Assembly: GCA_963827165.1 (NCBI GenBank)
Contig: CAWGZR010000010.1
Coordinates: forward strand, 256,001 to 320,000
Origin: Candidatus Bathyarchaeota archaeon
GTDB lineage: Archaea > Thermoproteota > Bathyarchaeia > Bathyarchaeales > Bathycorpusculaceae
DNA: 64,000 nt
Direction of reading: 5' to 3'
Below are positions 39,372 to 63,443 of this stretch, piece after piece (within the stretch, counting starts at the first letter, position 1; each line of letters opens with the position of its first letter). The position numbers were made by a program, and so were the translations under genes. Below the pieces are notes generated by a model. It was not told where the DNA came from. It saw only the letters and a program-made list of their open reading frames with translations, and made no database searches.

Positions 39372-39375
39372 ACTT

Positions 39376-39705: not shown

Positions 39706-39710
39706 TGCTC

Positions 39711-40175: not shown

Positions 40176-40309
40176 GATTACTCTAATCCTTTGTTTTTCC
40201 TTGCAGTAAAACAATGAAGCCAAATATAAATATTATCGGGTCGATTAACCGAGAATATAAGCTCTATAACCAAAAAATAGAAGCTACGCCTTATAAAGGT
40301 CAACAAGAG

Positions 40310-40495
40310 GGTAAAAATCTGGAATACCGCAAATACTTCAATACTTCAAAAGCCAGCGTTGATAAATCAGCTTTAGACCTGGGGCAATATTGCGACTGGA
40401 TAGGCAAGCCTCCGCAGACTTAATTGATGAATACATTGCAGCAAGAACAGACTTTGCGAAACTCCAAGATTGACGCAGAGAAACAGAAAATACAA
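40310..40495 (+). pseudogene. Possible remnant of a tyrosine integrase N-terminal domain
   Basis: ...ALDLGQYCDWIGKPP / ADLIDEYIAAR... joined across a frameshift, then a stop. Confidence 0.3.
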
Positions 40496-40813
40496 TTTTG
40501 AGATTTTCTTTTCCTATTTAGGTTTTTGGATTTGAAAATCAAAGTCCACGTTTGCAAGAAATGATTTGATGATTATTTTTTGGTTCTGAGCTTCTTTGTT
40601 TGGATTCATCTGGAAATTCCGAGTTAGTCTTTGGAAAAAAGAGGTATGGAGTAAGTAAGTCGGTGGATAAAGACGTTCTACCCATATTTTCTTGGTTTCA
40701 GACCAGTGCGTTTTAAGGCGCAAATTTGAATGAAAACAGGGTGTTTATTTACAGAATTATTCAGCAAAGTGTTATTAGCTCTGTACGTCCAATGAGCGAG
40801 TTGGGGGAAGCAA

Positions 40814-41023
40814 GTGAATAGAGAAGAGTCAATTTCTCTTTTGAAAGAATTAGGTGCTAATCAGCTTGTCAGCCCTATTTTTGTCAGTATTGAACATAGA
40901 TTCCCTGATATTTACCTATTGAAAATAAAAGGAGATTATGACCTTCCAGCAGTGAAGCTATTTCTTAAGAACAAATTCTCAGTGGAAGAAAACAAAGACT
41001 ACATTGTTATTTCTGAGCTGTAA
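40814..41023 (+). CDS. Small hypothetical protein
   Basis: 69-aa ORF with GGGG upstream. Confidence 0.55.
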   Translation: MNREESISLLKELGANQLVSPIFVSIEHRFPDIYLLKIKGDYDLPAVKLFLKNKFSVEENKDYIVISEL

Positions 41024-41284
41024 GACTACTTTTTACAAATGGTCAATGAAAATTGGTTCGCTCGCAGAATTTTTCTTTACTTTAGTTGGAACATCGTTTA
41101 GCGTCAAAACTATCGGAACAACGCCACTATCCAGATTTTCCATTCTATATTTTGGTTGAGTTTTCATTTTGCCACTTCTCCGTGTTTCATGCGGCTAAGA
41201 CAACTAACAATTGCAGCGGTCTTTTGAAAAGACAATCAGTAATAGTAAGATATAAGATTTGCGTTGTTTCACCGCGAGTAAAAG

Positions 41285-41694
41285 CTAAACTTGGCGTCCA
41301 AACCTTTTCTTCATGCATTCTTCACAAAAACTGTTCTTGAATTTTCTTTTTCCCATGGGTTGAAAGAGTTGTCCGCACCTGCCACAGTTATTTGGCTAAC
41401 TACTTTGGGCTCAAGCAGTTTGAGCCTTCTCTCAATTTCAGCCTTAACATCCGAATCAACCTCCCCCCTCCCTAGCATTTTTCAACAAAGCTTTAGCTTG
41501 TTCCAAGCTTCCGTCTCCGAATAGTTTAAGGAAGGCACTAGCTGTTTTCCCTTTCAGAATTGAGAAGGCAGCATACAAACAAAATTCTGAGGATACCTCT
41601 TTGATTTGCTTAGGTCAACAACAGGGAAGCGGAAGTTTTTTCGCCCGTTATTGTCATCTGTGTAATCTACGAAAACTCGCAGACTGATGCTCAA
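41285..41694 (-). pseudogene. Frameshifted gene for a protein with a C-terminal zinc finger
   Basis: Fragments VVDLSKSKRYPQNFVCMLP / SAFLKLFGDGSLEQAKALL / KAEIERRLKLLEP / CGRCGQLF...FCEECMKKRFG across frames. Confidence 0.55.
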
Positions 41695-41859
41695 ATTAGT
41701 TAATCTTTGAACGGAGAAACATGACTAAGTTATATTGTGATTGCTTAAGAGTCAATAACGTTGGATAGACCAGTATTTTCTCATGATATTCTTTAAAATC
41801 ACAGCGTTTATTGTCTACGCCGGGTTCATACAAAAACTTAAAGGTGAATTCAAGCTCAT

Positions 41860-42345
41860 ATGCTTGAGGGCACAATCCTGAACCTGATTGAGAAAACGAA
41901 TCTGAAAACAATCGACCCTGAATTGTTAAAGATAACAAAACTTTCCACAGAAGAAGACATCTTTTTTGTTGAACTACCGTTAGATAGAATCCCACAGGAA
42001 GAGTGGAGGGAACTCTTTGAAAAAGAATTGAAAAAAACTGCTCTACCATTAGCCATAACAGAAAAATCGAATGATTCTTCCCTGATAGGTAAACCTAACT
42101 ATGCAAACAGTTTGCAAGGGGACACAATTTCAATTATCACTCATCCAAGAAAACTTCAAGAAGACATTGAATTAGTTATGCAGTTGATAAAAACGGTCAA
42201 TAATAGAGTTGATCAATTTAATAAAGAAGTTAATGAGCAAAACAACAAAGAAAAATTAAAAACCAAAAATGACAAAGAAATTATAAGTGAAATGCGCGAA
42301 TCTCTTAGGAAAAATCCACCAACGCAGCCGCTTGATAGAACTTAG
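41860..42345 (+). CDS. Hypothetical protein with a coiled-coil C-terminus
   Basis: 161-aa AT-rich ORF. Confidence 0.6.
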   Translation: MLEGTILNLIEKTNLKTIDPELLKITKLSTEEDIFFVELPLDRIPQEEWRELFEKELKKTALPLAITEKSNDSSLIGKPNYANSLQGDTISIITHPRKLQEDIELVMQLIKTVNNRVDQFNKEVNEQNNKEKLKTKNDKEIISEMRESLRKNPPTQPLDRT

Positions 42346-42430
42346 AGAGAATGTTATCTTTTTATGTAAATAACTGAAAAGGTAAGTGATTTCATTTTTT
42401 CACTAAACGATTTAGTTTTGGTATTGGCAC

Positions 42431-42910
42431 TTACTGGGGTTCAATCCACGATATATCATGTCCACCTTGCAAATAATCGTGTCTCCACACGATTTCTGCA
42501 ACAGAAAAAACCCAAGTGCATTGTCCATCAGCATCCGCATGATGTATCAGTTGCATAGTTTCATCAATGCGTACAACAGGCATTATGTGCCAACCCTGAC
42601 CGTTACCTATAGATAACGAAATCAGGCAAGGTTTTTGCTCTTCTAAAAGGGATTTGACCCGGTTCACTTTCTCTATTCCTGTGGCGAAACTTTCCACTTT
42701 AATATTAATTGTAGGATAAACGCTTCTAATCTTGGCTGAAACAGAGTCAAAACTATTACCTTGACCAAGGTCAAAATCCTCCTGAAAGGTCCCAAGATTC
42801 ACTCCTTGAATCTTCAAATATCGAATCAGCCACTCATAGCCCGTTGGAACACAACCAGATTCATGACGTTGCGGAACTAAAGTTTTGCTCCAGTCCAATA
42901 ATTCTGTCAT
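42431..42910 (-). CDS. Papain-fold (C39-like) peptidase-like protein
   Basis: N-terminal Q-x4-GC and later WH in a beta-strand context. Confidence 0.55.
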   Translation of the reverse strand: MTELLDWSKTLVPQRHESGCVPTGYEWLIRYLKIQGVNLGTFQEDFDLGQGNSFDSVSAKIRSVYPTINIKVESFATGIEKVNRVKSLLEEQKPCLISLSIGNGQGWHIMPVVRIDETMQLIHHADADGQCTWVFSVAEIVWRHDYLQGGHDISWIEPQ

Positions 42911-43183
42911 TTGTCAACAGGATAGTATGACAACAATAACCGCTTAAGAATGTTGACTCAGATTCTGAAAAAATCCGTGGAAACATAAACCTCCATCGCA
43001 GATGTCCTAACTAACTCGGAAAGAATCCCTGCACCCCCGAGTGCCATGAGAGAAGACAGCCATAAGCGAAACAGGTTACTCGTCGTGGGTAATTTCAGAT
43101 AACGGATGGTAAACCGGCTCTTCGTTCTGATGAACTTTGAGCCCCCTTCAGAAAGACAAGCAAGCTGGCTAGTCAAAGGCGTC

Positions 43184-43450
43184 CTAACGTACGGATACCT
43201 TCGCTTTAAGCACAAAAACCCGCAGATTAATCCTTGACGGGCAAACAAAAGTGCAGTTTCCGCAGCCCACACATAGGTCAACCCGCAGTTTCCGGAGCGT
43301 TTCTTTCTTGTTTTTTTCGAAAGCCTCTTTGATTAAAACTGGGCTCAGGTTATGCGGGCAACTGCGCATGCAGACGCCGCAGCGGATGCAAGCCACCGAC
43401 TTGTCTTCCTGTGACTTAGCAGGATTCTCAAGCGTTTGAGAGGTACCCAT
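43184..43450 (-). CDS. Stand-alone RnfC-like 2[4Fe-4S] domain protein
   Basis: CIRCGVCMRSCPHNLSP...CVGCGNCTFVCPSRINL. Confidence 0.75.
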   Translation of the reverse strand: MGTSQTLENPAKSQEDKSVACIRCGVCMRSCPHNLSPVLIKEAFEKNKKETLRKLRVDLCVGCGNCTFVCPSRINLRVFVLKAKVSVR

Positions 43451-43660
43451 ATGTATCCCTTTATTAAAAAGCTGATTCGCAAAAGACAATTATATAGGTT
43501 TTTGATAAACTAAAATTTAGCAGAAAAACCGCAAAAGAGCAGGAAAAGAGAGTTCTTGCCCCCAAAAAATCAGGCCAGCAATGTGCCAAGCGATCTATCC
43601 TTTAGAAACGCTTATTACCCTTCGCCTGCGATGTTTATTCGTAGATTCTGAAGGCTTTTT

Positions 43661-44707
43661 ATGGCTTCTGAGAAAACCCGTCCACTCTATTCTAGTGATT
43701 TCCAGTCTTACTGCGGCAACGCCAAGAAACTGGTAGATTCGGAACTTCAAGCGCTGCTGCCAGTAGTTGCGGAGTTGAAGCTGCGGAAACAAATCGAGTA
43801 CGCCTTGCAGACCAGTGGGAAACGGCTTCGACCCACTTTGGTTCTTCTTTGTGGAGAAAGCGTTGGGGGCAATAGGGAGCGGCTTCGCAAGTTGGCTTTG
43901 GCGTTTGAGTTGCTGCATTTGGCGACGCTTGTCCACGATGACGTTTTGGACGAGGATTTGTTTCGCAGAAATTCTCTTTCGGTTTATGCGAAATGGAGCA
44001 TTAAAGACGCGATTTTGGTGGGTGACGTTTTGGCTTCGCTTTCGCTGTCTCTATGCAAGGGCTACAAGCGGGAAATCCTTAACGTGATGATAGACACGTG
44101 CATGCAGCTGTCCGACGGTGAGTACAGCGATGTTGAGTTGGCTGGAACGGGCTTAAGCGAGGATGATTATTTTGGCAAAATCAAAAAGAAATGTGCGTCG
44201 CTTTTCAGTGCAGCCTGCGAATGCGGAGGCCTTGCAGCCGATGGCTCATCTAACGTGACGGGTGCTTTGAGACTTTTCGGCGAAAACTATGGGATCGCTT
44301 ACCAGATACGGGACGACGTCTTGGATGCGGAGGAATGGGGAAACGACCTTCAACCCGACATAAACAAGTTCCGAGCAACACTTCCAATAATCCACGCCTA
44401 TCAAACCGCAAACCCAGAGAAACAGGTGCGTTTCAGAAGGCTACTTGCCGCAAATACAGCAGAAAACTTGAGCGTTTTCCTGAGGGAAGTTCAGGTTTAT
44501 TTCGAAAAAGGTTCTTTAGATTACTGCACAGGCAGAGTAGATGATTTTGTTGATAGCGCAGTTGCATGTTTGGCGCCTATTAGAGAGAGCAGACTGAAAG
44601 GTTATCTAAAAGAGATGGCAGAGGGGCTTAGAATCAAAGGTCCCGAAGTGAGCGTCGAAAAAGTTCTCTCAGAAACCCCTCGCAGACCGGTTTCGCCAAT
44701 TTACTGA
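43661..44707 (+). CDS. Polyprenyl diphosphate synthase (long-chain type)
   Basis: GKRLRP, ATLVHDDVLD (small Ala five residues before the first DDxxD), QIRDDVLD. Confidence 0.92.
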   Translation: MASEKTRPLYSSDFQSYCGNAKKLVDSELQALLPVVAELKLRKQIEYALQTSGKRLRPTLVLLCGESVGGNRERLRKLALAFELLHLATLVHDDVLDEDLFRRNSLSVYAKWSIKDAILVGDVLASLSLSLCKGYKREILNVMIDTCMQLSDGEYSDVELAGTGLSEDDYFGKIKKKCASLFSAACECGGLAADGSSNVTGALRLFGENYGIAYQIRDDVLDAEEWGNDLQPDINKFRATLPIIHAYQTANPEKQVRFRRLLAANTAENLSVFLREVQVYFEKGSLDYCTGRVDDFVDSAVACLAPIRESRLKGYLKEMAEGLRIKGPEVSVEKVLSETPRRPVSPIY

Positions 44708-44761
44708 GCAATGGGTAGTGATTCATAGTTCTTAATTCCGTTTTGCTAAGGACGTGAAAGT

Positions 44762-46255
44762 TTGACTGGGAAGTTGCAGCTAGCCGGCGAAGTTTTTTGG
44801 GATGAGGCGTCTCTCAAAGCTTACTCGGGGGATATGAGTCATTACTCAGTTAAGCCCCGGATGGTTGCTGTCCCGGCAAACGAAAACGACATAGACAAAC
44901 TGATTGTCTACGCAAAAGAAGAGTCCATCCCCATAACTCCGCGTGGCGCAGGCTCGAACCAGTCAGGCTCCGCCGTCGGCCCAGGCATAATCGTTTTGTT
45001 CTCAAAAATGAACGCAGCCATTAAGAGGGACGGTCGAAGAGTACGCGTGCAGTCTGGGATGATTCACCAAGTTTTGGATCAGCATTTGGCTTTGGATGGA
45101 CTTCGAATTCCGTATGACCCGACCTCACGTGGGTTTTGCACTATAGGCGGCAATGTCGCGACTAAAGCAAGCGGGCTTAGAAGCCTCAAGTATGGTACAG
45201 TTGATTCGGCAATTAGAAACCTGCGTTTCTTCGACATCGCCCACGGGTTAATCGACACTTCCAAAGGCTTACCAGAAAACTTGGAAGAAGCAATCGTAGA
45301 TTTGAAAAAAAGGCTTACCAACGACAAAGACGCGATGGAAATCTTGAAAGTGCGATGCAACCTCAAATCCAGCAGCGGCTACAACCTGAGAAGCCTCATA
45401 GAATACGAGCAACCAAGCGAAGTCGTCACTCATCTTCTTGCGGGTTCGGTTGGCACGCTAGGCGTTTTCAGTGAAGTGGAGTTGGAGGCAGTTCCAATCC
45501 CCAAAAGCGTCAGCCTTTATGTTGTCTTTTTCCGTTCCCTCTTAGCAGCAACTGAAGAGGTCCTAAAAATAGTGGCTTTCAAACCATCAGCCCTTGAACT
45601 CATGGACGCTTATGGCGTTGATTTGCTCAGGGTAACAAACGAAGTCGATGTTCCGCTTGACTGCAAAGCGGTTCTGCTTGTGGAATTCGACTCTGACTTA
45701 GACAGCGCAAGCGAGCTGATGGCGGGTTATTTGAAGGAGAAATCAAGAGAGTTCTCAGTCGAAAATGATGTGAAAAAACAAGCCACTCTTTGGAGGGTCA
45801 GGGAGTCGATGCTGCTTTGGATTATGAATTCGCTTGAAACACCGCAAAAAAGGTTTCCACCCTTCGCCGACGACATCGCGGTACCTTTGGAGAAACTGCC
45901 GAGTTTCGTTGACGCCGTTCAGCAGACGTTGGCAAGCTCTGGGACGATTGCGGTCATTTATGGGCATGCGGGCGAGGGAAATCTGCACATACGACCAATG
46001 ATAGGAGTCGAAAACTGGAAAGAAAACCTCAGAAACCTCTCCAACCTAATCTTCGAGACTGCATTGAATATAGGAGGCACCATAACGGCTGAACATGGGC
46101 TTGGAAGAAATAGATCCCGATATCTCCGTGAAGAATGGGGTGACAAACTTTACAACTACTTTTTGGAAGTCAAGAACATTTTTGATCCCGCTGATCTTCT
46201 AAACCCAGGCGTTGTTTTCACGTCGGATGATTTAACAGAAAACCTTCTGCCTTAG
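44762..46255 (+). CDS. FAD-linked oxidoreductase (GlcD/D-lactate dehydrogenase family)
   Basis: PRGAGSNQSG, TIGGNVAT, HAGEGNLH, EHGLG, FDPADLLNPG. Confidence 0.9.
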   Translation: MTGKLQLAGEVFWDEASLKAYSGDMSHYSVKPRMVAVPANENDIDKLIVYAKEESIPITPRGAGSNQSGSAVGPGIIVLFSKMNAAIKRDGRRVRVQSGMIHQVLDQHLALDGLRIPYDPTSRGFCTIGGNVATKASGLRSLKYGTVDSAIRNLRFFDIAHGLIDTSKGLPENLEEAIVDLKKRLTNDKDAMEILKVRCNLKSSSGYNLRSLIEYEQPSEVVTHLLAGSVGTLGVFSEVELEAVPIPKSVSLYVVFFRSLLAATEEVLKIVAFKPSALELMDAYGVDLLRVTNEVDVPLDCKAVLLVEFDSDLDSASELMAGYLKEKSREFSVENDVKKQATLWRVRESMLLWIMNSLETPQKRFPPFADDIAVPLEKLPSFVDAVQQTLASSGTIAVIYGHAGEGNLHIRPMIGVENWKENLRNLSNLIFETALNIGGTITAEHGLGRNRSRYLREEWGDKLYNYFLEVKNIFDPADLLNPGVVFTSDDLTENLLP

Positions 46256-46443
46256 CATGCAAGCAAACGCCGTGTTTGTAGTGTGGCAGCTACAACAAAC
46301 TCTTTTATTCGCAGGAAAACTCATTTTTCAAAGGGTATTCTTATGCATTTTTTAGAGGTAGGATATTATCAAAGTTCCAAAAAAACGCATTCCTTTTTGT
46401 TTGGAAAAATTCGAAAGTTTAAATCAGGATGTGCTGACTGAAA

Positions 46444-47664
46444 ATGGAAACTCAAACAACGTCTCAGCCTGCCGCTAAGGATACTGGTTTACGTGGAATC
46501 CTTATCGCCGACACGGCTATATCACTTATCGATGGCGCAAAAGGCGAGCTTTCTTATCGTGGATTCGACATCCACGACTTAGCATCTTACTCAACCAGCG
46601 AAGAAGTTGCGTACCTTCTTCTTTACGGCAACCTGCCATCCACATCACAAGCAGAGGAATTCTCCAAGATGCTTGCTGCGGAGAGAAAACTGCCGCCCAG
46701 CACAATTGAAGTTCTAAAAAAGATTCCCAATGCAACTACGCCGATGGATGTTTTGCAAGCGACTGTGGCATTGCTGGCGGAATCTGACTCTGAAAAACGC
46801 ATCGACTCCAAAGAAGCCAACCTTAAACGCGCCGCACGACTCACATCTTTAATACCTACGATTGTAGCGTTTTGGGAAAGAATTAGAAAGAACCAACCAC
46901 TAGTCGAGCCAGACCCGAAACTTGCCAGAGCAGCAAATTTCCTTTACATGCTTACGGGCGAGGTGCCCGATCTAGAGACTGCGAAGGATTTTGACACTTG
47001 CCTTGTACTGCAGGCTGAACATTCCTTTAACGCCTCCACCTTCGCCGCAAGAGTTGTCGCTTCTACTCGGGCGCACATGTACGCCGCTGTTAGCGCCGCG
47101 GTTGGGTCGCTTTCAGGAGAATTGCATGGAGGCGCGAACATGCAAGTTATGCGGAACCTTATGGAAATCGGCGAACCAGCTAAAGTTGACGCTTGGGTTA
47201 AATCCAAGTTTGACAATCATGAACGAGTCATGGGCATGGGACACGCCGTTTACAAAGCGCTGGATCCCAGAGCGGATTTGCTTAGTCACATATCTGAAAA
47301 GCTTGCCAGGCGAACAGGCGAGCCAAAATGGTACTTGATGACTAAAGAGATTGAGCTCGCCACCCAACGTGAGTACCGTGAGCGCAAAGGCGGCGAAATA
47401 TACCCGAACGTTGACCTTTACAGCGCCAGCGTTTACCACATGCTCGGCATCCCCGACGACCTCTTCACACCCATCTTCGCCATATCTAGAATTCCAGGTT
47501 GGGCAGCCCACATCATCGAAGAAAAGTTTCCCGCGCCCCCAATCAAACCTGAACTTTACCGTCCATCCGCCCAGTACCAAGGAAACTATTGCGGAGTCAT
47601 TGGCTGCAAATACGTACCTATGGGTAATCGGACAGCGCCAAGTCAACAACAAACAAAGAGTTAA
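46444..47664 (+). CDS. gltA: Citrate synthase or 2-methylcitrate synthase
   Basis: GLRG, YRG, EHSFNASTF, LHGGAN, GMGHAVY, PNVD, SRIPGW. Confidence 0.93.
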   Translation: METQTTSQPAAKDTGLRGILIADTAISLIDGAKGELSYRGFDIHDLASYSTSEEVAYLLLYGNLPSTSQAEEFSKMLAAERKLPPSTIEVLKKIPNATTPMDVLQATVALLAESDSEKRIDSKEANLKRAARLTSLIPTIVAFWERIRKNQPLVEPDPKLARAANFLYMLTGEVPDLETAKDFDTCLVLQAEHSFNASTFAARVVASTRAHMYAAVSAAVGSLSGELHGGANMQVMRNLMEIGEPAKVDAWVKSKFDNHERVMGMGHAVYKALDPRADLLSHISEKLARRTGEPKWYLMTKEIELATQREYRERKGGEIYPNVDLYSASVYHMLGIPDDLFTPIFAISRIPGWAAHIIEEKFPAPPIKPELYRPSAQYQGNYCGVIGCKYVPMGNRTAPSQQQTKS

Positions 47665-47709
47665 CAACCAAAAAGGGCTGAAAAATAAGAAACTACGGGG
47701 CTTTGATTA

Positions 47710-48444: not shown

Positions 48445-48445
48445 G

Positions 48446-51453: not shown

Positions 51454-51772
51454 TAAACACCGAGTACAATTTGTCCCTTGAGGCGCTGAAACCTAACCAA
51501 ATCCAAGTTTACCGTTTCTAAAAAACTTTTGCAACTCGGTGATAGGAGCCGCTGTTGGCTCGCTATTAATTCTTTTCGCGCGAAGCAGATCAAATGATAA
51601 ATGCTTCACCTACTACCACCAAGCATCCGAGCAACGTAAGAAACAAATACAAAAAGTCCCATTCGTCTATTATGAAAACTTGGAAACTTCAACCTTGGAA
51701 AACACTTAAATCGCAGCCTAAAACCCATTCTTAATGATAGTATTTTGCAGCATTTGAAATGAAGGTTTGTTT

Positions 51773-52609: not shown

Positions 52610-52691
52610 AAACAAAAATGATTTAAGAAGAAATCAAAAAACTTCGGCTTCTCCGATATCGAGCATTATTTTTTGGTTTGATTTTTTCTAT

Positions 52692-53519: not shown

Positions 53520-53722
53520 TTCATTTCACCTTCCCTGTCTGTTACGCGAAGATGGGTTGATGCTGCTTATTGCGGGGCATATACCAAGTTTGAAAACAAT
53601 GAGAGCCAAATCCATTAGAAATTGAGTTAAGCGTACCAGGCAAGGGTTTGGTCGATAATCTAGTCAACTCTAAACACTCTATTAAAATTTCTGTATCAGA
53701 ATTCTCGCGACACAACAGTTAA

Positions 53723-55090: not shown

Positions 55091-55209
55091 CAACAACGAA
55101 TCTCCCTGTACCCGTCAAATAGGTTAAGCCCCATGAAGCAATAAGACTTGCCCTCCAAGGCATGTTGCGTGAGCTGAAAAATTCTTATTCCGCTTCTACA
55201 ACCTAACTA

Positions 55210-56373: not shown

Positions 56374-57226
56374 TTCGGGCACTAAAGCGATTGTTCAAGG
56401 GATCACTGGTAAGCAGGGCAGCTACCAGACCAAACTTATGGTTGATTACGGAACAAAAATTGTGGCGGGAGTCGTTCCTGGCAAGGGCGGATCGACCGTC
56501 AACGGCATGCCAGTTTTCGACACTGTACGCGAAACTGTGGACACTTATTCGCCAGATGCCTCAATAATTTTTGTGCCGGCGCCAATTGCGCAAGACGCGG
56601 TTTTAGAAGCTATTGCCAACGAAATCAAAACAGTCGTTATAATCACCGAACATATACCGATAAGAGATGTCGTAAACTTCATGGGTTATGCGGCGCAGAT
56701 GCGAGTTTCCATCATCGGTCCAAATACGCCTGGAATTATTACGCCCGGAGAATGTAAACTTGGAATAATGCCAGCTGAAGTTTTTACGCCGGGTAGCGTT
56801 GGATTGGCATCAAGAAGCGGAACACTCACCTATGAAATAGCTGCTGGACTGACGGCTAAAGGTTTGGGGCAGTCGACCTGCTTGGGCGTCGGCGGCGACC
56901 CCGTTGTAGGCTTAAACTTTATCGAAGCGTTGGAGCTCTTCAAGTCTGATTCACAGACAAAAGCGGTGGTTTTGATAGGTGAAATCGGCGGCAATATGGA
57001 AGAGCAAACGGCACAGTATATAACTCAAACACATTATCCTAAGCCGGTCGTCGCATATGTGGCAGGACGTTATGTACCTGAAGGTAAAAGGATGGGGCAC
57101 GCAGGTGCCATAATAACGGGTAAGCAAGGAACTGCTCAAAGCAAGATTGATGCGTTTTCAAAAGCCGGCGTCAGGGTTGCTGAGAAGCCAAGCGATGTTT
57201 CTGCTTTATTGGCTGATTTAACCTGA
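56357..57226 (+). CDS. sucD: Succinyl-CoA synthetase alpha subunit
   Basis: VQGITG, IGPNTPG, SRSGTLTYE, GEIGG, RMGHAGA. Confidence 0.97.
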   Translation: MGILVDSGTKAIVQGITGKQGSYQTKLMVDYGTKIVAGVVPGKGGSTVNGMPVFDTVRETVDTYSPDASIIFVPAPIAQDAVLEAIANEIKTVVIITEHIPIRDVVNFMGYAAQMRVSIIGPNTPGIITPGECKLGIMPAEVFTPGSVGLASRSGTLTYEIAAGLTAKGLGQSTCLGVGGDPVVGLNFIEALELFKSDSQTKAVVLIGEIGGNMEEQTAQYITQTHYPKPVVAYVAGRYVPEGKRMGHAGAIITGKQGTAQSKIDAFSKAGVRVAEKPSDVSALLADLT

Positions 57227-57365
57227 GCGCCAACTGGCAAGTTGTCAATATCTGTTCAGTTGAGTTCAAGCGCCAATTCGGATTCCAAAAGATTTATCTT
57301 TAAACCTAAACAGACTATTAGTTAATTGCCAAGTCCTGAGCAGTTTTTTGCGCGAGCCGTTTTAT

Positions 57366-58325
57366 ATGAGCCAAAATAACACTAGAAAAATCAGTCCTGA
57401 AGATCTAAAGCTGTTCGATGGGTCAAACGGGAGACCTCTTTATCTTGTTTTCAAGGGCAAAGTCTACGATTTATCGACAAGCCAACTTTGGCTTGAAGGC
57501 AAACACATGGGCATGCACACCCGAACCGACGACTTAGCCGAAGCGATAAAAACCGCGCCTCACGGCGAAGACAACGTTTTCAGATTTCCCGTTATTGGCG
57601 AATTGTTAGAACCCACCCTTCAAGCTCCTGCAGCAGCCCCGATGATGGAGAAACCCTTGGAAGCGAAGGTTCAGCCATCGCCTGTTCCAGCTCAGCCAGC
57701 GAGGATGGAGAGGCGCACTTTTCTCAAGCTGGCGGCCGCGGCGGGTGGAGCAATCACGATTGCGGCTTTGTTGTCTACCCTAAAAGCAGGAACTTTCGTT
57801 CCGCCTCCAAGCTCAACTGCAGAGTGGCCAGTCGTCACTGTCACAAACATAAGCAAACTTTCAAACCTCACACCAGTCGTCTTCTACTACCCCTTAACAA
57901 GCACCCCTAACTATCTTGTCAAATTAGGAGTTGCAGCCACGGGCGGCATTGGGCCAGAAAAGGACATTGTGGCTTTCAGCGCAATTTGCCAGCATTTAGG
58001 ATGCGAATATGGCTTCGTACCTCCGGGAGGCTCACCGCCCTGCAACGCAGCTTACAAGGCTTCAATGCCTATGGGCTACTGCTGCTGTCACGGCTCTCAA
58101 TACGATTTCATCCATGGCGCAAAAGTAATCGGCGGTCCCGCTCCCCGACCAGTGCCCATGGTTCAATTGCAGCTAAACTCATCCACGGGGGACATAAGCG
58201 CGGTTGGGATGCAGGCACCTACGATTTTTGGGCATGGCCCGCCTGGAACCACTGATCCCGCGTCGGTTATGCAGTATGATTTGCAGGGTGGAGATTTGGT
58301 GACGCAATCCACAGTTTTGGGATGA
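57366..58325 (+). CDS. Cytochrome b5-like domain / Rieske [2Fe-2S] fusion with an internal twin-arginine anchor
   Basis: N-terminal FDGSNGRPLYLVFKGKVYDL...W..GKH...H...APHG; MERRTFLK plus TM helix at 57705; CQHLGC and CCCHGSQYD. Confidence 0.92.
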   Translation: MSQNNTRKISPEDLKLFDGSNGRPLYLVFKGKVYDLSTSQLWLEGKHMGMHTRTDDLAEAIKTAPHGEDNVFRFPVIGELLEPTLQAPAAAPMMEKPLEAKVQPSPVPAQPARMERRTFLKLAAAAGGAITIAALLSTLKAGTFVPPPSSTAEWPVVTVTNISKLSNLTPVVFYYPLTSTPNYLVKLGVAATGGIGPEKDIVAFSAICQHLGCEYGFVPPGGSPPCNAAYKASMPMGYCCCHGSQYDFIHGAKVIGGPAPRPVPMVQLQLNSSTGDISAVGMQAPTIFGHGPPGTTDPASVMQYDLQGGDLVTQSTVLG

Positions 58326-59857
58326 GAGATATGGGCGAAGAAACTGAGAAGAAGACGGCTTATGACAGGCTTGTCGACTGGTTTGACGTGAAATTCGGTT
58401 TTGCCAAGACACCGCTTAAGCCGATTCCAGATTTCACGATGAACCCGATTTACTGGCTTGGTTTACTCTTGGCGGTGACTTTCGGGTTGCAGGCCCTAAC
58501 AGGAATATTTATGCTTCTCTACTACGTCCCCACACCCGCCCAAGCATACTCTTCAACAGCATCCATCATCAGCTCTGTGCCTCTTGGCTCACTCGTCGAA
58601 ACCTTTCACCTATACACCGCCTATGCCATGATTCTTTTGACGTTTCTTCATTTAGTTCGCAACTTTTTCGGCAGCGCGCATAAAGGAAACAGGGACTTGA
58701 TGTGGCTTGTCGGAATCGTATTGGCCACGGTGGTAATCGGCTTCGGCGTGACAGGCTACCTTTTACCGTGGACAGTGATTTCCAAATCTGCAAGCGACGT
58801 CGCCATCGGATTCCTCAACTTCTTCCCCGTTGGCATAGCGAACCTTGGAAAATTCGTGGCAGTAGGCTCAGGAAGCGACGCCTCGGAATTAACGACTTTT
58901 CTACATATCCACACCGTTTTTCTTCCGTTGGCGCTGATTGCGCTTTTGGGATTGAAGATTTACATGTACGAAGTGCATGGCCCAATCTACGTGTCAGCAT
59001 ATGGGAAACCTGGAAAAGGCAAATACTATAGTTGGTTCCCAAAAATCTTCCTCTACTTCGTCATGCTTGCAGCTGCGTATGTTGCGATTTTGCTGGCGGC
59101 AGCGTCTCTTTTCCCTCTATCTTTAGCCCCCGCGTATTCAGCCGCAACCGCAGGCGCATACGTAGTGCAGCCCGATTGGTACCTGCTTTGGGTTTATCAA
59201 CTATTGAAAATCCAGCTTTTCGAAGGCTCCGCAGCAGCTTACGTGATAGCCGCGTTGATTGCTTTCGGAGTGATTCTTTTCCTCATGCCTTTTTACGATA
59301 GGAGCAAACGAAGAAACCTCAGCCAACGACCAGTTTACTCCACCATTGGTGCTGTTCTGATAATTGAGCTTATCACTTTGACTATATGGGGATACTTAAC
59401 ACCTGGGCAAATAATTCCAGACTATCAAGCACTCGCAGTTTTAGGCGGAGCAGCCGTGGTAACCATCGCCGCCGTCTGGGCGGTTTATCGGCTTAGACGA
59501 AAAACAAACATGGCAACAGTGATACCTGTGCAAACGAAAACCAACTCTTCCGCCGCCAACATATCCATAGCAAGCCAGTCCTTTGCAGTGCAAGCCTCCG
59601 ACGAGATGGCTCGGACAAAGAAGGAGCAAATCAAACGCGCCGGCGAAAGCCTGTTTAGCCCATTCACCGCTGTCTTCGCGGTTTTCTTGGCGGTTGCTTC
59701 GGTTTCTTTGGCATCAGCCGTAAACATGCTGCCCACCATTTCAGCGAATGCATCTTTTTTCACCTTAGCTTTAATGGCTTTCGCAGTTTCGTCTTTTTTC
59801 ATGATTCGAATGCTTCGAAAGTTTGTTTTAGCGTATGAAGGAGCGGTGGCCAAATGA
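58322..59857 (+). CDS. Cytochrome b of a Rieske/cytochrome b complex (fused form, extra C-terminal TM helices)
   Basis: TGIFMLLYYVP, H-x13-H in helix B, TGYLLPW, PDWY Qo motif, PFYD. Confidence 0.93.
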   Translation: MRDMGEETEKKTAYDRLVDWFDVKFGFAKTPLKPIPDFTMNPIYWLGLLLAVTFGLQALTGIFMLLYYVPTPAQAYSSTASIISSVPLGSLVETFHLYTAYAMILLTFLHLVRNFFGSAHKGNRDLMWLVGIVLATVVIGFGVTGYLLPWTVISKSASDVAIGFLNFFPVGIANLGKFVAVGSGSDASELTTFLHIHTVFLPLALIALLGLKIYMYEVHGPIYVSAYGKPGKGKYYSWFPKIFLYFVMLAAAYVAILLAAASLFPLSLAPAYSAATAGAYVVQPDWYLLWVYQLLKIQLFEGSAAAYVIAALIAFGVILFLMPFYDRSKRRNLSQRPVYSTIGAVLIIELITLTIWGYLTPGQIIPDYQALAVLGGAAVVTIAAVWAVYRLRRKTNMATVIPVQTKTNSSAANISIASQSFAVQASDEMARTKKEQIKRAGESLFSPFTAVFAVFLAVASVSLASAVNMLPTISANASFFTLALMAFAVSSFFMIRMLRKFVLAYEGAVAK

Positions 59858-60510
59858 TGAAGAGCGACTTTGATTCCTTACGGGTTACTACGTATTTCCT
59901 TTTGGCTTTTCTAGTCGTGGTCGGAGTTTCTATTTGGCTTCTGAATCTGATAAGCCAGCAAAGAGTCTTCGGTTTCTTGATGAGCGCCGAATTCGTCGCG
60001 TTCGCTATGCTCGTCTACCTTTACTACATGGAGGACCCAGCAGTCGCTAAGAAACTGTTGACCTCAGGGTTTGTTGCCATAGGAATTCTTGTTATTTTAT
60101 CTGGTGCCGTATTAGCCGGAGTCGGTACCCCTGTGGCGCTGCCTAAGCCCAACGTTTCGATGACCCTCTATGCTGGGGAGGTTTCTCCTACGTTGTTTGG
60201 GTTCGGGAACAGCGCAACCGCCATAACTTCGCCGGGTCCAATCCTTAACTTCACGGTGGGCGATGTCGTGAACATGACGATTTTTAACGCGGGAACAATG
60301 CCGCATAACTGGGCGATAGTCGACTCCGACAGCACTTCAGGCAAAGTTTTGTTCGGCGCAAAAATCGACAGCGGCTTAGTTCCTATACCTGTCAATGAAA
60401 CAGCATCGGTTGCTTTCAGAGTCACCAAAGCAGGGGACTACTTCTACATTTGTCAAGTTCCAGGGCACGTCCAGCTTGGCATGTGGGGAAGCGTGGTAGT
60501 GAATCCGTGA
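59854..60510 (+). CDS. Membrane-anchored type-1 blue copper protein (cupredoxin, sulfocyanin/rusticyanin-like)
   Basis: Three TM helices, then PHNW and YICQVPGHVQLGM (H, C, H, M ligands). Confidence 0.9.
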   Translation: MMKSDFDSLRVTTYFLLAFLVVVGVSIWLLNLISQQRVFGFLMSAEFVAFAMLVYLYYMEDPAVAKKLLTSGFVAIGILVILSGAVLAGVGTPVALPKPNVSMTLYAGEVSPTLFGFGNSATAITSPGPILNFTVGDVVNMTIFNAGTMPHNWAIVDSDSTSGKVLFGAKIDSGLVPIPVNETASVAFRVTKAGDYFYICQVPGHVQLGMWGSVVVNP

Positions 60511-61283
60511 TACGCAAAAACGCAGAAGAACTCTTCGTTTCATTTATGTTTTTGTTTGCAAGTTTACTCACGGGTCTAATGAGCTTCTTGGCATTTGGCT
60601 TTGTAATTGCAAAGCAAAAAGCCGAAAGAAAAAGGGAACCCCAAAAAGCTGTTGGTTTTCTTGCAGACAAGAATAGAGCGCTGAATTTTTACAGAATATT
60701 TTCTGTAGCCTACGACACTTTGAATCCGTCCCTGTACACCGTTGCCATGCGAAGCGAAATGGTAAATCAAATCGGAAACGGCGCGAACCTGCGAGTGCTT
60801 GACGTTGGATGCGGAACAGGCTACACGACCTCAGGAGTTTTGAGGCGAGGAGACATTGCGGAAGTGGTTGGGTTGGATATGAACCCTGTGCAGCTTAAAA
60901 GAGCCGTCAAGAACCTGCGCTTCGAAATGGACAGGGCTTCGATTTCAAGAGGCGACGCGGACAACCTGCCGTTTGAAGACGGCACTTTTGACGCCGTAAT
61001 TTCGGTCGGCGCCATCGAGTATTTTCCTGACCCCGAAAGAACAATAAAGGAGCTTTCAAGAGTCGCAAAGCCCGGTGGAACCGTTATTGTTGGTGGTCCC
61101 GAAGCAGGATGGTTCAGCAAGCTTGCGTTAAACAAGGTTTTTTATACGCCTTCTGCACAAGAAATGGAGACTTTTTTTCGCAAAGCTGACCTCGCCAATG
61201 TGAAATCGCGCTTGACAGGGATGAAAACTTTTTTCGCAACAAACAGATATGTTGTTTTTGCCGTTGGAAAGAAACCAGCATAG
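60507..61283 (+). CDS. Quinone C-methyltransferase, VTE3-like/UbiE-MenG superfamily, with an N-terminal TM helix
   Basis: FYRIFSVAYDTLNP...MR, VLDVGCGTGYTT, GDADNLPF, GAIEYFPDP; GTG start overlaps the cupredoxin stop. Confidence 0.85.
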   Translation: MIRKNAEELFVSFMFLFASLLTGLMSFLAFGFVIAKQKAERKREPQKAVGFLADKNRALNFYRIFSVAYDTLNPSLYTVAMRSEMVNQIGNGANLRVLDVGCGTGYTTSGVLRRGDIAEVVGLDMNPVQLKRAVKNLRFEMDRASISRGDADNLPFEDGTFDAVISVGAIEYFPDPERTIKELSRVAKPGGTVIVGGPEAGWFSKLALNKVFYTPSAQEMETFFRKADLANVKSRLTGMKTFFATNRYVVFAVGKKPA

Positions 61284-61300
61284 ACACAAAAAAAATTGGT

Positions 61301-62332
61301 TTAAGCTCTTTTCCGCGAGGCGAGTAGAGCCCAGGCTACAGGGGCATATGCGGCTGCTAGCAATGACAATATGAAAGCAAGTTGCAACATGTTAGCCGCA
61401 TTTAAGAAGCCTGCAATTGCGTACCCTGCGATTAAGCCGAAGCTGGTGACGCTATGTGCAAGTATCATGTCAAGGTTGGCTGGAGCCATCAGCCGTGGAT
61501 TGTCCTTGTGAGCCCGAACGACAGAGATGGAGTGAATAACAAGCGGGATGGATAGCAAAGCGGCAAGCGTGTAGAGCGGTATGAATCTGAGCAAAGCGGA
61601 AACGGCGATTACAGCGTATGTGCATATCCAACTTGCTATGTACAGTTTGACTCCAGCGTCTTTACCATATCTTGCGACAAGCGTAAGTTTCCCAGCCGCT
61701 CTATCCTCCAAAATATCAGGAATCTCATTAATCACAATCATAGAGAACAACATTATCCCCAGAGGTAACGTCGCCAAAAACGCCTGCAACGTCACCGTTT
61801 GCGCCTCAACATAAAAAGCGCCTAAACCGATAACTGACCCAAAATTCACTAACATCACAATCTCGCCTAGTCCGTGGTGACCAAAACTAATGGGCGGAGC
61901 CGTGTAGAACACGGCGCAGAACACGCCCAATAACCCGAAGGCCAAGATAGGCAAACCTCGGGTTAAGGTAAGATAGAACCCGGCGGCCAAAGTTATCAGG
62001 TAGCAGAGCGTAAAAGCCTTAAACATACTTTTAGGCGCTAAAAGCCCACTGCTAAGAGTAGCGCTACCGCCGGAATATGGGTTCTTCTCGCCCGGCGCAA
62101 GCTTGTCAACGCTGTGCTTGTAATCGTAGTAGTCGTCGGTCATGTTTAAGGCGATATGATTGATTATGATAGCGACTAGCACGAGAAGAAAGTAAAACGG
62201 AATAAAACCTCTGTTAGTTGCCCAACTGACTAAACCCCCAAGGACCGCGGGGAAGATGCTTGGAGGCACAAAATGGTAGCGGAAGGCTTGCCACCACACT
62301 TTTGCTTTACTTGCTTTTAACGTACTAGTCAT
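61301..62332 (-). CDS. menA: UbiA-family prenyltransferase, MenA-like
   Basis: NMTDDYYDYKHSVD, YTAPP, GLGE, NEIPDILEDRAAGKLTL. Confidence 0.85.
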   Translation of the reverse strand: MTSTLKASKAKVWWQAFRYHFVPPSIFPAVLGGLVSWATNRGFIPFYFLLVLVAIIINHIALNMTDDYYDYKHSVDKLAPGEKNPYSGGSATLSSGLLAPKSMFKAFTLCYLITLAAGFYLTLTRGLPILAFGLLGVFCAVFYTAPPISFGHHGLGEIVMLVNFGSVIGLGAFYVEAQTVTLQAFLATLPLGIMLFSMIVINEIPDILEDRAAGKLTLVARYGKDAGVKLYIASWICTYAVIAVSALLRFIPLYTLAALLSIPLVIHSISVVRAHKDNPRLMAPANLDMILAHSVTSFGLIAGYAIAGFLNAANMLQLAFILSLLAAAYAPVAWALLASRKRA

Positions 62333-62636
62333 ATTGGTTCATCCAAATTTTGAGTGAGCTGAATAGGGGTTGAGAATAAAGAAATCAACCGATAAGATGT
62401 GAATTCGTGCGATTAAGGATAGCATACGCCAAAACGCTTGGCTCTTGCAATTCAATTATAAAAAACGGCGAATTAAAACTTACCTAAAGACGCTGCAAAC
62501 CCAAGACTTTCCTTGAACAAATTCTTTCCAATGTTGTTGCTTTAAGCCTACCACAATTATTTATAAAAAATCAATGACACATATATGAATATAGTATCCG
62601 AAGATTCTGGATAACAATCTTTCGGGAGCACTATTA

Positions 62637-62885
62637 ATGAGGAAAATTCAAAGTTCAAATTTTAAAGTCACCAGAGAAGTCAGTGGAAACCAAAAACCAA
62701 AATTGCGCACAAGTATGCCGATTGTTGAGTGCACTTGCGGAGAAAAAATCCTAGTGGTCCCCGACGTAGCTGCCATGGAGAGAGCAATAAAGAATCATAA
62801 AGCTAAACACAAAAGCGTTAATGAGCAACATCTAACTGAAAAAATTCTAAAAGCTGTCAGCAAGCAAATGCTCCAGCAAGCTTAG
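62637..62885 (+). CDS. Small putative Zn-binding protein (CxCG...HxxxH), paralog of 34604-34858
   Basis: MPIVECTCGEKILVVPDVAAMERAIKNHKAKHK. Confidence 0.7.
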   Translation: MRKIQSSNFKVTREVSGNQKPKLRTSMPIVECTCGEKILVVPDVAAMERAIKNHKAKHKSVNEQHLTEKILKAVSKQMLQQA

Positions 62886-62993
62886 CCGCCATTCTCGCCA
62901 CAGCCGACTAGAATATCCTTCAGAGCTTAAGAATCAATTTTGAGTATACTCGCAGAAAAAAAGCGAAAAAAACTGACTTGTTTCTGTCAAAAC

Positions 62994-63332
62994 TTACTTT
63001 CCCGATGTCAATGCAACGCCGCCCAAGGTAATCAGAAAGCCACCGATAAGAACAGCCATGTCAAAGGCCATCAAAGTCCCGGTAGCGATCATAACGAAAA
63101 ATCCGATCAGCATGGGTATCATCCCGTACATTCTTTGGTCTTTCTTTTCACCCGTGAGATACGCTTTTCTGCCAAACCAAATTGTCAAGATAGCGAATAC
63201 AACTCCGAGAACACCGACTGCTACATTTCCATAGGCGAAGTAAACTATGCCGGAGAGGAATATGACGATTGCTCCTAGTAAGGCAATGATGTAGCCCCAT
63301 CTTGGTCGCTTGCTGTTAACTCTTAAAGGCAC
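62994..63332 (-). CDS. Small four-TM membrane protein
   Basis: Four hydrophobic helices. Confidence 0.65.
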   Translation of the reverse strand: MPLRVNSKRPRWGYIIALLGAIVIFLSGIVYFAYGNVAVGVLGVVFAILTIWFGRKAYLTGEKKDQRMYGMIPMLIGFFVMIATGTLMAFDMAVLIGGFLITLGGVALTSGK

Positions 63333-63443
63333 TTGGGAAGTGGTAGAATTAGGTAGTTGACTAATTGTTTTGGTTTTAATTTTCTCTCTTCCAATCGTAT
63401 TAGCGCTTGATTCGTTGATAAAACTTTGGATAAAAAATAGGCG

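Follow-up and report, generated by a model that had tools for sequence, protein, structure and literature searches.

In the parts of Kao and Hunte (PMC4122944) drawn on here, the Rieske/cytochrome b complexes of the Sulfolobales and haloarchaea are described as joining with a membrane-bound copper protein to make up the part of oxidase supercomplexes that oxidises quinol. The same source associates the Qo motif PDWY with menaquinol-oxidising complexes and low-potential Rieske proteins, and reports that the cytochrome b of Pyrobaculum lacks the second His ligand of heme bH. By analogy, the Rieske/cytochrome b/copper-protein part of the Sulfolobales and haloarchaeal supercomplexes (PMC4122944) appears to be the closest described counterpart of a set of genes from Candidatus Bathyarchaeota archaeon (assembly GCA_963827165.1, contig CAWGZR010000010.1, positions 256,001 to 320,000). 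In this stretch of 64,000 nucleotides, the whole of which is here termed the window, a block of respiratory, quinone-related and tricarboxylic acid (TCA) cycle genes separates yhbY from rps19e. We interpret the block as a long-resident modular metabolic island of a peat/soil Bathyarchaeia clade at the yhbY/rps19e boundary, itself a general break and insertion point in the class Bathyarchaeia, and assign a probability of roughly 0.7 to this explanation as a whole.

The locus resembles the SoxM supercomplex of Sulfolobales (SoxF/SoxG/SoxE), as outlined in PMC4122944, in that it encodes a Rieske protein, then cytochrome b, then a membrane-anchored type-1 copper protein, with no c-type cytochrome, and in that its cytochrome b, like SoxG, has the Qo motif PDWY. 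The best matches were also of Sox type, namely SoxC for cytochrome b, SoxL2 / arsenite-oxidase small subunit for the Rieske protein, and the SoxE Pfam family for the cupredoxin. Since all Sox scores lie far below the equivalog cut-offs (the best NCBIfam match of cytochrome b, SoxC, reaches 192 bits vs a cut-off of 740), the island complex is not an orthologue. Unlike the SoxM supercomplex, the island has no adjacent heme-copper oxidase subunits, its Rieske protein bears a cytochrome b5-like domain, and Lys stands in place of the fourth heme-ligand His. The same ligand position is not His in the Pyrobaculum cytochrome b, a likeness by description, whereas the island family differs in having an invariant Lys at this position, common to the 13 nearest 50%-identity cluster representatives.

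The first-pass annotation of this DNA had taken Bathyarchaeia to be mostly fermenters or acetogens without a quinone/bc-type chain, a view which is now partly out of date. In the portions of these reports that were available to us, Bathycorpusculum is presented as purely fermentative with acetogenic potential (PMC10684969), and no known quinone pathway was found in Bathy-6 and Bathy-8 MAGs (metagenome-assembled genomes), the terminal acceptor of which is given as unknown (PMC11697101). Respiratory potential is nevertheless reported in some peat Bathyarchaeia, with aa3 oxidase, nirK, nosZ and SQR in the order Houtuarculales (‘Ca. Paludivitaceae’; PMC11619403) and oxygen-respiration potential in one peat MAG, FEN-987 SPRUCE 533 (PMC12296737). 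These MAGs are of the same class and habitat as the window, and the same portions of the two reports make no mention of a Rieske/cytochrome b complex, quinone synthesis or a yhbY-rps19e island. A literature search likewise returned no description in Bathyarchaeia of a Rieske/cytochrome b complex, a MenA-like gene or a yhbY-rps19e island, though the supplementary tables of PMC12296737, PMC11619403 and PMC11697101 may list such genes. Respiratory potential in some peat Bathyarchaeia has thus already been reported, and the proteins are annotated in public MAGs; what is new is the anatomy and history of the island.

The yhbY/rps19e boundary in related genomes

The comparison set was obtained by an S19e protein search with 10-kb flanks and comprised the best 80 of 162 confirmed stretches (74-98% identical; labelled L001 etc.), onto which the window genes were mapped by tblastn, with close relatives also aligned as DNA. 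From the window, 65 open reading frames (ORFs) were scanned for families with Pfam and NCBIfam. The titles of the 80 loci are nearly all those of Candidatus Bathyarchaeota/Bathyarchaeia MAGs from peat and soil, many with peat-type isolate names (bog, fen, palsa, SPRUCE). These titles, and the naming of the window's Rieske cluster at NCBI as ‘Candidatus Bathyarchaeia archaeon’, bear out the host proposed from the sequence alone. Because Bathycorpusculum and ‘Bathy6’ MAGs occur in the set at 76-82% S19e identity, the window would be placed near the Bathy-6 / Bathyarchaeales group. A few loci are titled otherwise (Acidoferrum, Limnocylindrales, Methanocella, Crenarchaeota, Nitrososphaerota), yet archaeal rps19e, PDCD5 and rpl31e are present, in some cases also rnp4 and yhbY. 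For instance, L025 (Candidatus Acidoferrum sp.) and L032 (Candidatus Limnocylindrales bacterium) carry Bathyarchaeia-like rps19e, PDCD5, rpl31e, rnp4 and yhbY, and L039 (Methanocella sp. title) carries Bathyarchaeia-like rps19e, PDCD5 and rpl31e. Since the same loci hold archaeal ribosomal genes, the bacterial labels look like binning errors, which would also account for the bacterial naming of some homologues of cytochrome b and Rieske.

The genes bordering the block are as follows.

63706-63978, minus strand: rnp4 (RNase P Rpr2/Rpp21), upstream border; Pfam PF04032, E 3.5e-16; homologous DNA in L005 and L007
63444-63746, minus strand: yhbY (CRS1/YhbY domain), upstream border; Pfam PF01985, E 8.9e-17
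39711-40223, minus strand: rps19e (S19e), downstream border; Pfam
39376-39705, minus strand: PDCD5-like gene; Pfam
39213-39371, minus strand: rpl39e (L39e); Pfam
38715-39197, minus strand: rpl31e (L31e); Pfam

The Pfam coordinates confirmed that rnp4-yhbY and rps19e-PDCD5-rpl39e-rpl31e are co-oriented on the minus strand and about 23 kb apart, and the DNA of the downstream border (38715-40223) is 84-87% identical to that of L001-L008. Neither border is chimeric, with the rps19e-side junction recurring in L001-L004 and the yhbY-MenA adjacency in L016, L018 and L019. The yhbY gene was found upstream of rps19e in 43 of the 80 loci, across gaps of 19-7082 bp. As the gap is below 1 kb in 27 of these 43 loci (below 300 bp in 10), and as L005 presents an empty site, the expectation that rnp4-yhbY-rps19e are usually contiguous holds among the relatives. 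Another 14 loci stop short of 10 kb upstream and are hence little informative, and 23 show the full 10 kb without yhbY, including L001, L003, L004 and L011, which are filled with island genes. The other 19 full-length loci with neither yhbY nor an island gene are more distant, and the upstream neighbours in the 15 of these that were sampled are unrelated (histidine kinase, radical SAM enzymes, MtmB, a HepT/MNT pair, NuoE/F-like proteins and NiFe hydrogenase). The boundary upstream of rps19e is a recurrent breakpoint, contiguous order being the common state.

Other cargo in the yhbY-rps19e gap consists of an insertion sequence accompanied by an AAA protein and a DNA methylase (L004), a terminase together with a methylase/Mrr protein (L047), and a PIN protein (L030, L036 and L040). 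Oxygen-related cargo was also seen in this gap, namely a flavodiiron-like protein (ODP beta-lactamase fold plus flavodoxin) at 8354-9583 of L014 and a hemerythrin at 5984-6325 of L049.

Composite structure of the island

DNA alignment with relatives resolved the interval into three layers, consisting of a ferredoxin gene, the island proper and a low-GC insert. In L005, the S19e of which is 94% identical, yhbY (window 63470) leads straight to the ferredoxin gene (window 43520-43178) and then to rps19e (40240). This empty site sets the limits of the gene-dense island proper at approximately 43521-63469 (19.9 kb), and marks the ferredoxin gene as an old neighbour of rps19e. The two layers outside the island proper are listed below.

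43184-43489, minus strand: 2x[4Fe-4S] ferredoxin (like the RnfC C-terminus), outside the island; Fer4 families, Pfam
40241-43156, no strand: low-GC orphan insert, unique to the window's genome; DNA alignment against six close relatives

The related loci hold the island in parts. Subsets of its genes were found at the same site in 13 loci, all of one clade, in differing combinations. L016, L018, L019, L020, L037 and L011 have only the MenA-like, methyltransferase, cupredoxin, cytochrome b, Rieske and polyprenyl synthase genes (approximately 6.5 kb), some single genes being missing or truncated, whilst L007, L009 and L032 have sucDC, with or without a 275-aa ORF and sdhAB. The gene order of the window is kept in L001, L003 and L004 from the ComA-family gene or citrate synthase to rps19e, and L002 ends within the polyprenyl synthase gene. 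The TCA/dehydrogenase segment (44762-57226) sits between the Rieske and polyprenyl synthase genes, which adjoin each other in L016. The block is therefore composite: the bc/quinone module encloses a TCA/dehydrogenase module, and the 2.9-kb insert was added later.

All gene families named in the first-pass annotation were recovered between the borders by Pfam and NCBIfam. Intergenic spaces within the island are at most 312 bp, apart from 1.1 kb between the MenA-like gene and yhbY, leaving no room for hidden sdhC/D genes. No integrase or transposase family was found in 40-64 kb (Pfam), and the sole tRNA match of the window is at 15078-15212. Flanking repeats were sought only around the 2.9-kb insert, where short chance-level pairs were obtained.

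Ferredoxin homologues lie upstream of rps19e in 15 loci, mostly directly adjacent, L005 included. The spacing between the two genes is approximately 45-70 bp in L001, L002, L003, L004, L005 and L007, compared with 2916 bp at this point of the window. The insert responsible has a GC content of about 0.38, approximately 1.6 kb without a long ORF, and only two ORFs above 150 aa (41860-42345, plus strand, and 42431-42910, minus strand; GC 0.34-0.41, GC at third codon positions (GC3) 0.33-0.35). It gave no Pfam, PHROGs or Rfam match and no tRNA; no copy was found in the 80 loci, bar one 56-aa tblastx match, or elsewhere in the window. It is probably a recent insertion.

Rieske, cytochrome b and cupredoxin genes

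The three genes at the core of the bc/quinone module are as follows.

57348-58325, plus strand: Rieske iron-sulfur protein; PF00355 at residues 204-271
58322-59857, plus strand: cytochrome b, fused N- and C-domains; PF00033, PF13631, PF00032
59854-60510, plus strand: type-1 copper protein (cupredoxin) with an N-terminal anchor of 3-4 helices; PF00127, SoxE PF06525

Four-base overlaps occur at both the Rieske/cytochrome b and the cytochrome b/cupredoxin junctions, and the order of the three genes is common to L011, L016, L018, L020 and L037. In the window they form part of a co-directional run of six genes, sucC-sucD-Rieske-cytochrome b-cupredoxin-methyltransferase, on the plus strand.

The Rieske domain scored 22.5 against a PF00355 cut-off of 20.3, and its CQHLGC and CCCHGS boxes (CxHxGC / CxCHGS type, with the disulfide cysteines) are invariant in 13 of 13 sequences. 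Residues 17-86 of the protein resemble a cytochrome b5-like domain of the heme/steroid-binding type, and are followed by a twin-arginine translocation (TAT) signal at residues 120-138, in which the twin-arginine motif is internal, and then a membrane helix. The Cyt-b5 Pfam match has an E value of 0.0099 in the window protein and of 4e-7 to 8e-7 in the L011 and L019 homologues; H53, H57 and H72 of the b5-like domain, together with R122 and R123, are invariant across all 13 sequences. An Atlas search with the N-terminal part returned Cyt-b5 clusters at 0.86, which serve as a lead only, and an AlphaFold2 model of the protein (13-row alignment) had a mean pLDDT (predicted local distance difference test score) of 49, too poor for a fold search. 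Among the best 120 homologues, 116 are full length (300-363 aa) and four are shorter (206-272 aa), and the public cluster start of the protein is six residues downstream of the ORF start in the window. Because the b5-like domain precedes the twin-arginine motif and the membrane helix, it should stay cytoplasmic, and the C-terminal domain should face outward.

In cytochrome b, the Qo motif PDWY occupies residues 284-287, and H96, H110, H197 and K212 are invariant in 16 of 16 sequences. Of the four axial His ligands of hemes bL and bH expected on helices B and D, three are therefore present, with the fourth (the second His of helix D, heme bH) replaced by Lys212, which aligns opposite the second helix-D His of cytochrome b6. 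This Lys is found throughout the 13 nearest cluster representatives, the more distant ones having His, and its conservation suggests a conserved role and not simple loss. Another invariant His, H219, lies seven residues past Lys212.

The cupredoxin scored 31.9 against a PF00127 cut-off of 21.2, and its His, Cys, His and Met ligands (PHNW...YICQVPGHVQLGM) are kept in 12 of 13 aligned copies, the copy of L019 having no Cys. The bc module of L019 is decaying (5516-5950 and 7446-7946), with the Rieske gene cut to a 166-aa b5-like ORF and the cupredoxin truncated, Tyr replacing the Cys ligand. A different, 184-aa cupredoxin occurs in the yhbY-rps19e gap of L017, L022, L023, L025, L027 and L028, which form one sub-clade. 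It is 43-56% identical to the island cupredoxin; besides a signal peptide it has, at the C-terminus, a ‘PEFP + hydrophobic helix + basic tail’, which we take to resemble the archaeal PEF-CTERM sorting signal.

Quinone-related genes

Three further genes of the module encode enzymes of quinone-building families.

43661-44707, plus strand: trans-polyprenyl diphosphate synthase; PF00348, E 2.1e-54
61301-62332, minus strand: MenA-like polyprenyltransferase (UbiA superfamily, about 9 membrane helices); PF01040, E 4.8e-22
60450-61283, plus strand: class I S-adenosylmethionine (SAM) methyltransferase, UbiE/MenG-like; PF08241, PF01209

The polyprenyl synthase has the motif LHLATLVH-DDVLD, in which Ala (-5) and Thr (-4) precede the first DDxxD, small residues at these positions being the rule for a long-chain product. 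The same residues are found at -5 and -4 in a 41-42% identical paralogue in L062 and L072, and the best NCBIfam matches of the window protein are short-chain IdsA/geranylgeranyl diphosphate (GGPP) models, all below cut-off. All 10 NCBIfam matches of the MenA-like protein were to models of 1,4-dihydroxy-2-naphthoate (DHNA) polyprenyl/phytyl transferases or related prenyltransferases, again below cut-off (best 148.7 bits vs 264; TIGR00751 97.8 vs 102.15). Its Asp-rich stretches, NMTDDYYD and DILED, are presumably the two motifs of the UbiA fold. Copies 78-81% identical adjoin yhbY in L016, L018 and L019, and a 79% identical copy is present in L037, where yhbY would lie beyond the contig end. The methyltransferase, which has one N-terminal hydrophobic helix as a membrane anchor, scored 65 bits against a cut-off of 158 for the NCBIfam model MenG_MenH_UbiE. 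The enzyme families proposed at first pass are hence present, namely a polyprenyl synthase, a MenA-like protein and a methylase, but the more specific names are less secure, with MenA below its cut-offs, the methylase generic and nothing pointing to VTE3.

TCA and dehydrogenase genes

The module nested between the polyprenyl synthase and Rieske genes contains the following genes.

44762-46255, plus strand: FAD-linked oxidase (GlcD / D-lactate dehydrogenase family); PF01565, PF02913; GlcD 223.8 vs 567.9
46444-47664, plus strand: citrate / 2-methylcitrate synthase; PF00285, E 8.7e-125; TIGR01800 424.5 vs 421.3
47710-48507, minus strand: sdhB; NF004616 260.5 vs 228
48446-50170, minus strand: sdhA; TIGR01816 768 vs 727
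50167-51453, minus strand: rubredoxin (residues 3-47) fused to an FMN-dependent 2-hydroxyacid dehydrogenase; PF00301, PF01070; LldD-type models below cut-off
51767-52609, plus strand: ComA-family (phosphosulfolactate synthase-like) gene, not the ComA equivalog; PF02679, E 1.3e-61; TIGR03849 70.6 vs 280
52692-53519, minus strand: 275-aa ORF with 3 hydrophobic helices, a Thr/Ser-rich linker and an Ig/filamin-like C-terminus; hydropathy, Pfam sub-threshold only
53723-55096, minus strand: MmgE/PrpD-family protein; PF03972, PF19305; missing from L007
55210-56373, plus strand: sucC (succinyl-CoA ligase beta); NF001913 444.7 vs 370
56336-57226, plus strand: sucD (succinyl-CoA ligase alpha); TIGR01019 405 vs 353

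The NCBIfam cut-offs were passed by SdhA, SdhB, SucC, SucD and citrate synthase. Citrate synthase and SucCD, as named at first pass, were thereby substantiated, but the assignment of ‘PrpD’ was not: the protein has the family domains only, and falls far below the PrpD equivalogs of the 2-methylcitrate cycle (165 vs 950, 135 vs 575 and 110 vs 458).

The gene for the rubredoxin-FMN dehydrogenase precedes sdhA with a 4-base overlap, and sdhAB has no adjacent anchor gene. In flavocytochrome b2, an FMN 2-hydroxyacid dehydrogenase bears a fused cytochrome b5 domain, and the fusion protein of the island may be likened to that enzyme in joining an FMN_dh domain to a small N-terminal one-electron carrier domain. 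It differs in that the carrier is a rubredoxin and not a heme domain, and in that the gene overlaps sdhA. Together with SdhAB it may constitute a soluble or unusually anchored dehydrogenase assembly. The 275-aa ORF was considered as SdhC/D and rejected on its hydropathy and its Pfam matches, which were sub-threshold and unrelated; homologues of it lie before sdhA in L007 and also occur in L003.

History of the island

Phylogeny was inferred from a ribosomal alignment of S19e, PDCD5 and L31e (81 rows, 435 columns) by a quick search, and likewise from cytochrome b. In the ribosomal tree, the 13 island-bearing loci and the window fall within one 36-row clade (Shimodaira-Hasegawa-like approximate likelihood ratio test, SH-aLRT, 97), the window being part of a 9-row clade with L001-L008 (support 100), and the TCA module requires two state changes. 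The cytochrome b tree places the window with P0002 (85% identical) and P0006 as sister to a group comprising L037 and, nested successively within, L016, L019 and the trio L011, L018 and L020, i.e. (L037, (L016, (L019, (L011, L018, L020)))), and agrees with the ribosomal tree inside the L016 group.

Island genes have a GC3 of 0.51 +/- 0.03, within the range of the Hyp genes, the ATPase, Cbf5 and an MFS gene of the window. The ratio of non-synonymous to synonymous divergence (dN/dS) is 0.03-0.25 for 12 island genes, indicative of purifying selection, and synonymous divergence (dS) between relatives is 0.3-1.7, of the same order as or above that of rps19e (for L011-L020, 0.38 for CytB vs 0.31 for S19e). 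Relatives form at least 120 clusters for each of SdhA (down to 66% identity), cytochrome b (down to 47%) and Rieske (down to 56%). The named clusters are almost all Bathyarchaeia, three names being Acidoferrales or Limnocylindrales bacterium. Distant relatives of cytochrome b in Atlas were clusters of Nitrososphaerota, Methanobacteriota and Thermoplasmatota (0.94-0.97), which are leads only.

We read the island as long resident in the clade and repeatedly lost, and regard its import from outside in one recent event as disfavoured. The first-pass annotation had proposed an acquired module and had named, as a finding that would tell against it, relatives carrying these genes. Such relatives exist, in that 13 related loci hold subsets of the island at the same site, and with its host-like composition, dN/dS of 0.03-0.25 and a cytochrome b tree that broadly follows the ribosomal tree, the notion of one recently acquired module is not borne out; that of an insertion relative to the ancestral order stands.

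Proposed build and competing explanations

Judging from relatives, the ancestral order would have been rnp4-yhbY-(ferredoxin)-rps19e. A bc/quinone module (MenA-like, methyltransferase, cupredoxin, cytochrome b, Rieske and polyprenyl synthase) would have entered beside yhbY, and in the sub-clade of the window a TCA/dehydrogenase module would then have become nested between the Rieske and polyprenyl synthase genes, with sucCD and sdhAB, then the PrpD-family, ComA-family, rubredoxin-FMN dehydrogenase, citrate synthase and FAD-oxidase genes. Both modules may later have been lost or have decayed in many lineages, and the window's genome would finally have taken up the 2.9-kb low-GC insert beside rps19e.

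As to function, the polyprenyl synthase, MenA-like transferase and methyltransferase would complete a prenylated naphthoquinone, toward which the flavin dehydrogenases and SdhAB, the latter with no membrane anchor seen, would feed electrons. The Rieske/cytochrome b complex, from its motifs, would oxidise quinol at the PDWY Qo site, and electrons would then pass to the membrane-anchored type-1 copper protein outside the cell, as gene order and copper ligands suggest, and from there to a terminal oxidase or reductase presumably encoded elsewhere, none being seen in the window. A menaquinol-type Rieske/cytochrome b to copper-protein segment is probably encoded. Gene content fits the chain from quinone through a bc complex to a copper protein that was proposed at first pass, except for the succinate-to-quinone step, for which the window offers no SdhC/D. 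The earlier observation that the window holds no terminal oxidase or reductase also stands, with no heme-copper or bd oxidase family among the 65 ORFs.

Several points weigh against this explanation of a long-resident island with a respiratory role. Placed on the ribosomal tree, the bc module (7 carriers, 40 rows in which a fully seen gap does not contain it, and 34 unknown) calls for at least five state changes. L037 is placed differently in the cytochrome b and ribosomal trees, and relatives could hence also have exchanged the module by recombination via the conserved flanks. Both trees came from quick searches, the ribosomal one resting on 435 columns, no single relative locus with its 10-kb flanks spans the whole island, and the modules may have an older origin outside the class Bathyarchaeia. 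On the functional side, no SdhC/D (or SdhE/F) anchor family was found in the window, where the spaces beside sdhAB are at most 46 bp or are overlaps, though an anchor may be encoded in another part of the genome. Neither the MenA-like protein nor the methyltransferase reaches its curated cut-offs, and no genes for the naphthoquinone ring (men or futalosine), for heme synthesis or for a terminal oxidase/reductase were found among the 65 window ORFs. No oxidase was found among the 26 multi-helix ORFs scanned (of 66 candidates) in the 80 loci, and a canonical Q cycle is not assured in a cytochrome b without the fourth His ligand.

An alternative is that a respiring organism outside the Bathyarchaeia recently donated the whole block, as a single module, by horizontal transfer, and that it was dropped between yhbY and rps19e. 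In favour of this are the contiguous ancestral order and the empty site of the close relative L005. SdhA also passes the cut-off of the equivalog ‘sdhA_forward’, a model built mainly on bacterial and mitochondrial enzymes, and island GC3 is slightly higher than that of the other window genes (0.51 vs 0.476, Mann-Whitney p = 0.014). This gap is, however, due to the low-GC3 ribosomal genes, the Hyp genes, ATPase, Cbf5 and MFS gene matching the island, and 13 related loci with differing subsets at the same site, together with an island dS of 0.3-1.7, speak for long residence. The same can be said of the 120 or more clusters each of CytB, SdhA and Rieske relatives, of which the named ones are almost all Bathyarchaeia, the three bacterial cluster names matching the two bacterial titles of loci that have archaeal ribosomal genes. 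With no integrase family, no border tRNA and only chance-level repeats around the 2.9-kb insert, we regard such an import as quite improbable. Still less credence is due to an assembly or binning artefact in which bacterial DNA was joined to an archaeal contig, and we consider it highly improbable: some homologues are indeed named ‘Acidoferrales bacterium’ or ‘Limnocylindrales bacterium’, but L025 and L032, with matching bacterial titles, carry archaeal rps19e, PDCD5, rpl31e, rnp4 and yhbY, both junctions recur in independent assemblies, and composition is uniform.

A different question is whether the island serves an anaerobic or redox-balancing metabolism and not oxygen respiration, for example with SdhAB reducing fumarate with a low-potential quinone, with the bc/copper branch ending at nitrite, at N2O or at an extracellular acceptor, for instance peat organic matter, or with that branch running in reverse. 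The titles of relatives point to waterlogged peat, and no oxidase was seen in the window or in the scanned ORFs of the loci, which would suit such a role. SdhA, though, best fits the succinate-oxidising equivalog (768 bits vs 520 for the quinol:fumarate reductase model), and the adjoining citrate synthase and SucCD suggest an oxidative cycle. Type-1 copper carriers have high potentials, and so suit oxygen, nitrite or N2O over organic acceptors. The literature, in the portions available, cuts both ways: the PDWY motif together with a MenA-like enzyme points to a low-potential quinone (PMC4122944), nirK and nosZ are reported in other peat Bathyarchaeia (PMC11619403), and peat microbes are argued to draw electron acceptors from soil organic matter (PMC12296737), but aa3 oxidases are also reported in peat Bathyarchaeia of another order (PMC11619403). 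An anaerobic role thus appears possible but unlikely.

Returning to the long-resident island, a bolder version of it may be put forward, tentatively and as one that we hold to be doubtful. A family-level clade of peat/soil Bathyarchaeia, related to Bathy-6, a group characterised as fermentative/acetogenic, would have its own form of Rieske/cytochrome b respiration, in which heme bH might be Lys-ligated or absent and the b5-like domain might act as a second, cytoplasmic electron port. The cassette, with its quinone, copper carrier and TCA feeders, would have been gained, lost and perhaps swapped via the ribosomal flanks, switching lineages between fermenting and respiring.

Other features of the window

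A small ORF of the island's outer edge is uncertain as a gene.

62994-63332, minus strand: small ORF, 112 aa, three hydrophobic segments, uncertain as a gene; hydropathy

It lies in the 1.1-kb stretch that is missing from L016, L018 and L019, and gave no Pfam or PHROGs match and no tblastn match in the 80 loci.

The region downstream of rpl31e (32682-37874) is also variable and encodes a universal stress protein, a protein with a CAP12/Pycsar-type TIR effector domain (33402-34280) and a P-type ATPase (35235-37874). The ATPase is common to L004 and L007, and is lacking from L003 and L005 (10 kb seen), which realign from approximately window position 32.5 kb on to cbf5. Elsewhere, hypE, hypD and hypF (NiFe-hydrogenase maturation) and an ORF with a Pvc16 N-terminal domain are located at 6298-11024 and 24585-25448; the window showed no structural gene for a hydrogenase. 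The archaeal 16S rRNA gene of the window (25663-27155; Rfam 1483 bits) stands alone. At Rfam gathering thresholds the 64 kb gave no match to 23S or 5S, and the rRNA genes hence seem unlinked here. The tRNA match at 15078-15212 (135 bases; Rfam 44 bits) was not called by ARAGORN, and its length suggests a tRNA with an intron.

Implications

The substitution of Lys for His in cytochrome b and the fusion of a b5-like domain to the Rieske protein are testable departures from the textbook bc complex. The patchy, modular distribution of the island at a fixed site amounts to a natural experiment, in which sister species with and without the modules can be compared. If the explanation favoured here is true, then purifying selection on genes for a quinone, a bc-type complex, a copper carrier and an oxidative TCA cycle, and their presence in many species, would mean that part of the class Bathyarchaeia can respire, which would change models of its role in peat carbon turnover.

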